Shown: piece by piece, positions 55,950 through 56,065 of the stretch
Position numbering within the stretch: position 1 is the stretch's first letter
How the letters are laid out: each line of letters begins with the position of its first letter
DNA from: Candidatus Cloacimonadales bacterium
Lineage (GTDB): Bacteria > Cloacimonadota > Cloacimonadia > Cloacimonadales > JAFGVF01
Direction: 5' to 3'
DNA: 64,000 nucleotides
NCBI GenBank assembly: GCA_963677495.2
Contig: CAXXOU010000002.1
Coordinates: forward strand, 230,523 to 294,522
Position numbers and translations under genes: made by a program
The notes under the pieces: generated by a model
The model's input: only the letters and a program-made list of their open reading frames with translations
Told to the model about the DNA's origin: nothing
Database searches by the model: none

Positions 55950-56065
55950 AGTTATCCCACTGTTTTCCCACTGTGCACGCACTGTGCACCCAGTGAAACA
56001 GTGGGTTGGCAGTGCCTTCACAGTGCGTGCACAGTGCAGACACAGTGCGTTGCCGGATAGAGCTG
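55950..56065. repeat. Phased-word element, copy 7 (CACTG then CAGTG)
   Basis: CACTG at 55958, 55969 and 55980. CAGTG at 55991, then 55999, 56010, 56021, 56032 and 56043. CACTGTGCACGCACTGTG is the exact reverse complement of CACAGTGCGTGCACAGTG. Confidence 0.8.

Follow-up and report, generated by a model that had tools for sequence, protein, structure and literature searches.

A helically phased, inverted array of CACTG words in Cloacimonadota intergenic DNA, a possible protein-docking site

The R1 parC site consists of two sets of five 11-bp iterons, each bound by approximately one ParR dimer, and the dimers line up on one face of the helix to give a bent, symmetric nucleoprotein complex (PMC2241845). 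Its two blocks are direct repeats with a 39-bp promoter between them, and the site is plasmid-borne and lies beside parM and parR. ArcA sites comprise two to five direct repeats spaced 11 bp center-to-center, and multiple repeats have also been described for OmpR and PhoB (PMC3798270). Known operators of the OmpR/PhoB family overlap or adjoin the promoter that they regulate and do not form long convergent arrays. Here we describe an array of similarly spaced units in a 64,000-nt stretch of Cloacimonadota DNA (hereafter the window, the whole of the stretch analyzed), together with copies in related genomes (individual loci outside the window carry labels such as L044).

The array lies in a 1079-nt non-coding stretch (55734–56812) and ends 766 nt before the ATG at 56813, in agreement with an earlier sequence-only reading of the locus, which had placed it upstream of this gene in a long non-coding region. 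One side of the stretch is occupied by a minus-strand operon for a 101-aa lipoprotein-like ORF, an M24 Xaa-Pro aminopeptidase, and a cytidylyltransferase, and the other by the third of three tandem giant C25-peptidase/T9SS genes, which has its own TTGACA-type promoter at 56678. The context is chromosomal (374-kb contig), and the G+C content of the array (51–60%) can be compared with 37% for the window. No sigma-70-like promoter or terminator was found in or next to the array, and no switch in GC skew occurs there. By its M24 homologs, the source belongs to Candidatus Cloacimonadota, whereas a word search for the small lipoprotein returned no detectable homologs.

The sequence-only reading had described CACTG words that give way to CAGTG on a single 11-nt phase, interrupted by one 8-nt step. 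All nine word starts (Table 1) were found where it had put them, by reading of the sequence and by exact search, and a recount gave regular steps of, in order, 11, 11, 11, 8, 11, 11, 11, and 11 nt (seven of 11 nt and one of 8 nt). Nine of the 97 CASTG words of the window fall within these 90 nt, as compared with at most four per 90 nt in 300 dinucleotide-preserving shuffles of the window. All seven CASTG pairs 11 nt apart belong to the array (shuffle mean 0.19, maximum 2), the longest chain at this spacing has five words (two in shuffles), and a Poisson estimate for such an array in the whole window is ∼3e-11. In total the window has no excess of the word (97 vs. ∼108 expected), none of the other CASTG spacings from 6 to 16 nt is enriched there, and the other 63.9 kb contain no CACTG pair at a spacing of 11 or 8 nt. 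The array is real, built, and non-random, and chance is excluded.

Table 1. Coordinates of the array and of the module around it (positions in the window).
Feature	Sequence	Start	End	Strand	Details
Outer left arm of larger imperfect palindrome		55818	55845	+	Against 56071–56098: 28 nt, 75% complementary
Left flank (anchor)	GCAAAACGCAGTTATCC	55941	55957	+	Aligns with L128, L133, L046, L044, and L124
Left arm		55958	55995	+	CACTG at 55958, 55969, and 55980, then CAGTG at 55991, all 11 nt apart
Inverted repeat, 5' arm	CACTGTGCACGCACTGTG	55969	55986	+	Exact, 18 nt; dyad at 56002.5, 5.5 nt to the right of the word dyad (55997)
Center	AAA	55996	55998	.	3 nt, giving the single 8-nt step; dyad of the word array (55997)
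Right arm		55999	56047	+	CAGTG at 55999, 56010, 56021, 56032, and 56043, 11 nt apart
Inverted repeat, 3' arm	CACAGTGCGTGCACAGTG	56019	56036	+	Exact, 18 nt
Right flank	CGTTGCCGGATAGAGCT	56048	56064	+	Weaker mirror of the anchor, GATAGAG block in common; alignments with L124, L044, L046, and L128
Outer right arm	GAGAGTAAAAAGGGCAATAAATATAGCT	56071	56098	+	Conserved in L044
Box 1	TAAGTTATTGCAAAATGCACTGTGTATG	56098	56125	+	Single CACTG in extended conserved context
Box 2	TAAGTTATTGCAAATACCACTGCGTATG	56249	56276	+	Second box copy, 151 nt after box 1

The 39 oriented units give the consensus C-S-CACTG-Y: besides CACTG, the information resides in C at −2 (25 of 39), S at −1 (29 of 39), and Y at +5 (33 of 39), and the remaining positions are nearly free. 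The 11-nt spacing is strict in every copy even though the letters between the words differ, the only exception being the center. The central step is 8 nt in the copies, around three nucleotides that read TTT in L044, AAA in L046 and L058, and TCA/TGA in L124, but is 13 nt in the eroded L128. Throughout the family a motif with the left-flank consensus ATCAAnACGCAnnTTTCC borders the word array on either side, one occurrence mirroring the other; in the window, sequence model R1 matches 55941–55985 (43.7 bits, E 4.5e-12) and, on the minus strand, 56009–56053 (27.8 bits). Beyond the flanks, at a distance of ∼50–95 nt, sit single-CACTG boxes in an extended context, with the form TAAGTTATTGCAAAnnnCACTGYGTATG in the window, L044, and L133, ...CGCACTGTAGATT in L046, L058, and L124, and ...CACTGCGGATCT in L128. 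Box 1, which matches boxes in L044 and L133/L134 and the terminal box of L124 and L046, is probably the right end of the module, and box 2 is 83–85% identical to the second box of L044 and to the box of L133. The module as a whole covers ∼55818–56125 in the window, with the second box at 56249–56276.

A link between the array and the family of giant peptidases, which the sequence-only reading had implied, was not borne out: the regions upstream of paralogues 1 and 2 lack the array. In relatives the module adjoins rex, phoU-pit, a PAS gene, a HAD hydrolase, and a T9SS cargo gene. The three C25 paralogues themselves (42755–47617, 48358–53301, and 56813–61834) lie in tandem and encode proteins of 1620–1690 aa, each with a propeptide and peptidase, a NIDO domain, and a FlgD-Ig/T9SS sorting domain, and the window holds further T9SS cargo genes at 5685–8570, 10245–13028, and 13980–16145. 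Two facing DnaA-box-like nonamers, TTATGCACA (47971–47979) and TGTGGATAA (47983–47991), sit in the 740-nt non-coding stretch upstream of paralogue 2, where GC skew does not switch.

A genome collection was scanned for four in-phase words, CAGTG(N6)x4, and the distribution obtained is a lower bound. Most of the matches listed are plain 11-nt tandem repeats unrelated to the array, and among them only L044, L046, and L058, from a JAFGVF01 Cloacimonadota MAG, have its architecture of three to five CACTG words, a 3-nt center, and four to five CAGTG words. A metagenome scan for the center pattern returned 10 loci, of which only L124 is a member. As judged from sequence, the architecture is, among the matches listed, confined to a narrow Cloacimonadota clade, where its combination of 11-nt phase, orientation switch, and 8-nt step occurs at at least five loci beside unrelated genes. 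There is one copy in the 64-kb window and there are at least three in the JAFGVF01 MAG. A sequence-only covariance model of the flank plus three words recovered all known copies and nothing else from 255 kb of Cloacimonadota DNA that included the whole window.

At two of the loci the element occupies orthologous positions in different genomes, with word counts of two, four, eight, or nine. The window (nine words) and L128 (four words) adjoin the same lipoprotein–M24 genes; the element is at this orthologous site, with four words, in L128/L129, where the M24 protein is 74% and the lipoprotein 60% identical to that of the window. L044 (eight words) and L133/L134 (two direct words) both lie upstream of phoU-pit (PhoU 83% and PHO4 84% identical). 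Ahead of the promoter that they share with L044, L133/L134 retain the flank, a direct pair of CACTG words at 11-nt spacing, and the downstream box. The array is absent from 21 kb of L127, the closest relative (M24 86% identical), which has a rearranged neighborhood, and from L131 (M24 57% identical), and Cloacimonadota with 70% PHO4 identity have a phoU-pit locus without the module. In both orthologous pairs, intergenic alignment is limited to two blocks, the flank plus words and the CACTG box, the remaining intergenic DNA being unalignable at the same divergence. The block of flank plus two words is 29/33 identical between L128 and L133, which are non-orthologous loci in different genomes, and the conserved unit therefore persists where a hairpin is impossible.

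Word, one-turn spacing, and flank are thus kept over ∼75–85% protein identity at both orthologous and non-orthologous sites, and this retention, as far as sequence comparison can tell, is the signature of sequence-specific recognition of double-stranded DNA. Because word, phase, and flank are conserved and known systems use the same geometry, we favor, tentatively and at rather less than an even chance, a reading of the array as a symmetric, helically phased set of candidate protein-binding sites.

Two of the related contigs, from independent short-read assemblies, both end inside the CACTG array (L058, 1–82; L129, 1–35), which suggests that inverted repeated words break de Bruijn-graph assembly; that phased inverted-word arrays do this to short-read assemblies is a practical lesson of the locus. 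We rejected high copy number as the explanation of the contig ends: those of L058 and L129 are no evidence of it, because an inverted repeat alone can end contigs, and L044 starts in an IS3-like element.

The sequence-only reading had also stressed self-complementarity. The 18-nt inverted repeat is exact (Table 1), as is the 10-nt complementarity of CCCACTGTTT (55956–55965) to AAACAGTGGG (55996–56005). The interleaved A-B-A'-B' order of these two pairs was confirmed, but the pseudoknot-like fold read into it was not upheld, since any left word can pair with any right word and repetition of one self-complementary word class yields such interleaving automatically. Folding of both strands gave strong self-complementarity (RNA, −61/−60 kcal/mol, z ∼−5; DNA of the window array, z −6), and z reached −8.4 in L044 and −9.6 in L046; a topology conserved across copies, by contrast, did not emerge. 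The L128 fold is not significant (z −1.3 and 0.0) and L133, which keeps only its two direct words, cannot form the hairpin. Relative to the word dyad, the best stem is displaced by +5.5 nt in the window and −5.5 nt in L046 but is centered on it in L044; with centers that differ in this way between copies there is no common register. Its absence from the two- and four-word orthologues and register shifts of ±5.5 nt argue against the hairpin as a conserved structure. When the words were fixed and the spacers shuffled, the mean energy was already −36 to −52 kcal/mol, and the real spacers were more stable only in the window (3/500 shuffles) and L046 (1/500), not in L044 or L124. Most of the hairpin energy comes from the words themselves, and the predicted fold is not to be read as RNA structure because it is mostly an automatic outcome of a repeated self-complementary word. 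Perfectly complementary spacer hexamers, which are not the same from lineage to lineage (TGCACG/CGTGCA in the window, CTCAGT/ACTGAG in L046), are a point in favor of some homogenization or selection from arm to arm.

These folds also bear on a transcribed structured RNA, which could be a small RNA in the form of a long hairpin, an element for processing or stability, or a leader for the downstream gene. Such an RNA would accord with the very high predicted stability of both strands, with a period of 11 nt, which is one turn of A-form RNA, and with arm mismatches in L046 and L044, some of which are G-U compatible on the plus strand. We nevertheless consider it very unlikely. Neither strand is consistently more stable across copies, L128 and L133 lack the fold and the copies that have it differ in register, and the module has neither a sigma-70-like promoter nor a terminator. 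Read-through into the window array is unlikely because the flanking genes diverge from it, and the downstream genes have their own promoters 140–630 nt away. At the gathering threshold no Rfam family matched the window or eight related loci, and at an E-value threshold the intergenic region gave only generic miRNA-precursor hairpins, at 17–29 bits against thresholds of 50–100. ARAGORN found no tRNA or tmRNA.

Array length differs strongly between orthologues (nine vs. four words and eight vs. two), as might be expected of a functionless product of recent slippage or palindrome amplification that persists by chance, and long palindromes are unstable and evolve fast. We regard this explanation, already disfavored, as extremely improbable: the units are not identical and are therefore old, yet their phase, word, and flank have been kept across genomes and loci where other intergenic DNA is unalignable.

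The main rival to protein docking is a lineage-specific palindromic repeat of REP/REPIN, ERIC, or MITE-like type, a selfish or structural foldback with arms of 11-nt subrepeats. Some trans-acting enzyme would copy it into new intergenic positions, or it would persist as a hairpin or cruciform, with decayed relics at older sites. The element resembles REP/REPIN and ERIC sequences as an intergenic imperfect palindrome of 100–300 nt that occurs at several loci, is sometimes retained at the same site, and has hairpin potential in a phylum with RAYTs. It also resembles foldback elements and MITEs with subterminal arrays, as known from eukaryotic foldbacks, in its inverted arms of short tandem subrepeats and box-like terminal inverted repeats. 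The whole module is pseudo-palindromic, with flank motif and terminal boxes inverted on both sides, and non-orthologous copies are alike beyond the words (the window and L044 align over 182 nt at 73% identity, E 5e-25, and the L046 and L058 arrays are near-identical). In three copies (L046, L058, and L124) similarity ends abruptly at the outer edge of a ∼30-nt TIR-like box, AATCTACAGTGCG... The strong folds of L044 and L046, the co-variation of spacer hexamers between arms in the window and L046, the eroded look of L128 and L133, and a host genome rich in other intergenic repeats with a bona fide RAYT all agree with a repeat of this kind.

Even so, we judge such a repeat to be somewhat unlikely. 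Copy number is low (one in 64 kb, none in the 21 kb of L127), and orthologous retention over 74–84% protein identity with specific blocks kept is unusual for neutral relics. A strict 11-nt word phase is not a feature of REP or ERIC sequences, and no RAYT flanks the array; the RAYT of the window is instead flanked by a different, 126-nt repeat, and no CACTG word occurs around it (31369–38113). REP units have GT[AG]G 5' of a short palindrome; here GTAG is confined to the outer boxes of three copies (L046, L058, and L124; CACTGTAGATT), where it sits 3', at the outer end, and not 5' of the hairpin, and has the opposite polarity. As to foldback elements and MITEs, the sharp box boundary was found, but no copy with both ends intact, no associated transposase or autonomous partner, no defined target-site duplication, and no sign of recent transposition, and the IS3-like element beside L044 has unrelated ends. 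A match to a known IS or MITE terminus or recombination-site array, which the sequence-only reading had named as grounds for refutation, was not found.

Other repeats and mobile elements of the window were mapped alongside. The RAYT gene at 34750–35286 (plus strand) encodes a bona fide REP-associated tyrosine transposase (NCBIfam NF047646, 92.7 bits vs. a cut-off of 80). Its 126-nt repeat, with two small hairpins, is present in 3.5 tandem copies upstream and one downstream, all in direct orientation, and occurs at 34290–34730, 35288–35414, 41160–41332, and 29420–29548 (reverse complement), with a partial copy at 62539–62579 (reverse complement). A relation between this repeat and the array was rejected, blastn having found none. 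In L131 (11790–11850 and 12370–12410), from a more distant Cloacimonadota genome, a RAYT gene is flanked by classical inverted REPs, CCTGTAGTGGAACGAAGTGGAACTACAGG, and REP/RAYT systems are therefore common in the phylum. A second dispersed intergenic repeat, R2, has four copies in the 64 kb (56283–56574, 53362–53548, 13120–13255, and, as reverse complement, 38819–38868), with the core GAAGCAGTCACCATTACGACCAnCrGGAGTTCGGG and variable internal parts; the copies at 56k and 53k have a further 131 nt in common (77% identity). One copy lies immediately downstream of the CACTG module. A link between R2 and the array was rejected as well, R2 being merely adjacent, with only a short GGAGTTCGG/CGCACTG resemblance to the boxes. 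An IS3-family element occupies ∼3790–5150 (minus strand; rve integrase ORF 3881–4669, orfA upstream), and a related IS3-like copy in L044 (1–90) ends ∼30 nt from the CACTG array and explains the end of that contig.

Inverted pentamer arrays of polyomavirus origins and iteron origins offer analogies for yet another possibility, a cis-acting site for a DNA transaction, either recombinase or transposase assembly (paired ends or a resolution site) or symmetric loading of an initiator of replication or segregation. The words converge here from opposite directions on a 3-bp center, the terminal boxes are inverted, word number varies, and the locus is a repeat hotspot, with the IS3-like insertion ∼30 nt from the L044 array and R2 236 nt downstream in the window. 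Iterons of 11 bp are, moreover, typical of plasmid centromeres (PMC2241845). A transaction site is still unlikely, as no recombinase, Rep, Par, or relaxase gene lies near any copy, GC skew does not switch at the array, and several copies per genome occupy ordinary chromosomal loci. No matches were obtained in phage and plasmid collections (blastn) or in viral contigs (three pattern scans).

Protein docking on double-stranded DNA, the reading that we favor, would work as follows. The array would form the core of a ∼300-nt conserved, pseudo-symmetric non-coding module that acts as double-stranded DNA and docks a sequence-specific DNA-binding protein, each 11-mer (C-S-CACTG-Y plus three to four free bases) serving as one binding unit. 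The strict 11-bp phase would place successive units on one face of B-DNA and so permit cooperative head-to-tail binding of protomers, and the switch in orientation around the 3-bp center would bring two opposed protein arrays together at the dyad. The outlying single-CACTG boxes 50–95 bp away may bind the same protein as auxiliary sites that support looping or mark boundaries, and the likely output would be local control or architecture of the flanking intergenic region. We infer the bound protein, its type, and this regulatory or architectural outcome; a winged-helix binder like OmpR/PhoB or a ribbon-helix-helix binder like ParR would offer the best structural analogy.

Comparison with the two precedents is mixed. 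Like parC, the window array has short units of ∼11 bp set head-to-tail in two blocks of about five. The Cloacimonadota blocks are, however, inverted across 3 bp, chromosomal, and present at several loci, and neither parR/parM-type neighbors nor a plasmid or mobile context was found; lipoprotein, M24, C25, rex, phoU-pit, PAS, and HAD genes adjoin the copies instead. Likeness to ArcA, OmpR, and PhoB operators lies in two or more direct repeats at 11 bp, ∼7 informative and four free positions per unit, and a variable number of repeats, and the minimal member, L133, amounts to one direct pair of words at 11-nt spacing in front of a phosphate-transporter operon. Set against these operators, the word is unlike Pho, Arc, and OmpR boxes and no site was found at a −35 position. 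The distance to the nearest downstream sigma-70-like promoter is not fixed (∼140, 280, 340, and 630 nt), and the window and L128 also have a divergent promoter ∼160–170 nt away. The lack of a common function among module neighbors and the absence of further CACTG pairs at 11 or 8 nt from the rest of the window weigh against the docking reading, and no candidate binder gene linked to the module was found. The symmetry of flanks and boxes and the complementary hexamer spacers are not required by a pure binding-site model. A more elaborate reading would make the module a chromosomal assembly site for a new kind of symmetric nucleoprotein machine in Cloacimonadota, with two opposed protein filaments on phased CASTG units meeting at the dyad between boundary boxes. 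It would serve chromosome organization or segregation, or act as the cis site of a new foldback-type mobile or recombination system, instead of promoter control; we hold this reading to be quite unlikely.

Several further families were considered. The 11-nt unit with a 5-nt core, the inversion of orientation, and the lack of cas domains in the window do not fit a CRISPR, and there is no terminator-like site at the array to suggest an intrinsic terminator. Sigma-54, LuxO/NtrC (TTGCA-N3-TGCAA), Bacteroidetes −33/−7, and ECF-type promoters in the TAAGTTATTGCAAA box were rejected by eye, the key positions (GG at −24, spacing, TAnnTTTG) not being conserved between copies. Resemblances to parS, the DnaA box, CIRCE, the LexA box, and matS are only partial and unsupported, and all were rejected. 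A Pho-regulon site was likewise rejected: although two genomes have the module in front of phoU-pit, Cloacimonadota whose PHO4 is 70% identical lack it there, and it lies a long way from the promoter.

None of the known families tested includes the element, yet it is built on a known principle. If it is a docking platform, it would give a sequence-defined handle (a core of 5 bp, strict phasing at 11 bp, and natural copies with two to nine units) on a DNA-binding system in a candidate phylum without cultured genetics, and the variation in unit number at orthologous sites would provide a ready-made titration series for binding or reporter assays.

Three minor observations concern related or analogous loci. 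Just upstream of the two-word remnant are three direct TTTCGTG repeats at 9–10 nt spacing (L133, 410–450; L134, 225–250), and the complementary motif, ACGAAAT, is met again in the window (56165–56174) and in L044, in both cases downstream of box 1. In L128, at ∼8690–8720 on the minus strand, a palindrome, TCGTGATATTGTTCACGA, lies beside a TTGACA box just upstream of rex; it resembles a Rex operator, which would mean autoregulation. Sphingobacterium spp. (L007, L008, L021, L023, L024, L037, L096, L105, and L110) carry an analogous but unrelated dispersed non-coding module of ∼300 nt without an Rfam match, in which a conserved GACTGAATAAACAATGACTAATTACTGTCTAAATATTGA block comes after four to six direct 11-mers (TTGTTCAGTGmT); each genome has several copies, some of them directly upstream of a DUF6266 gene.
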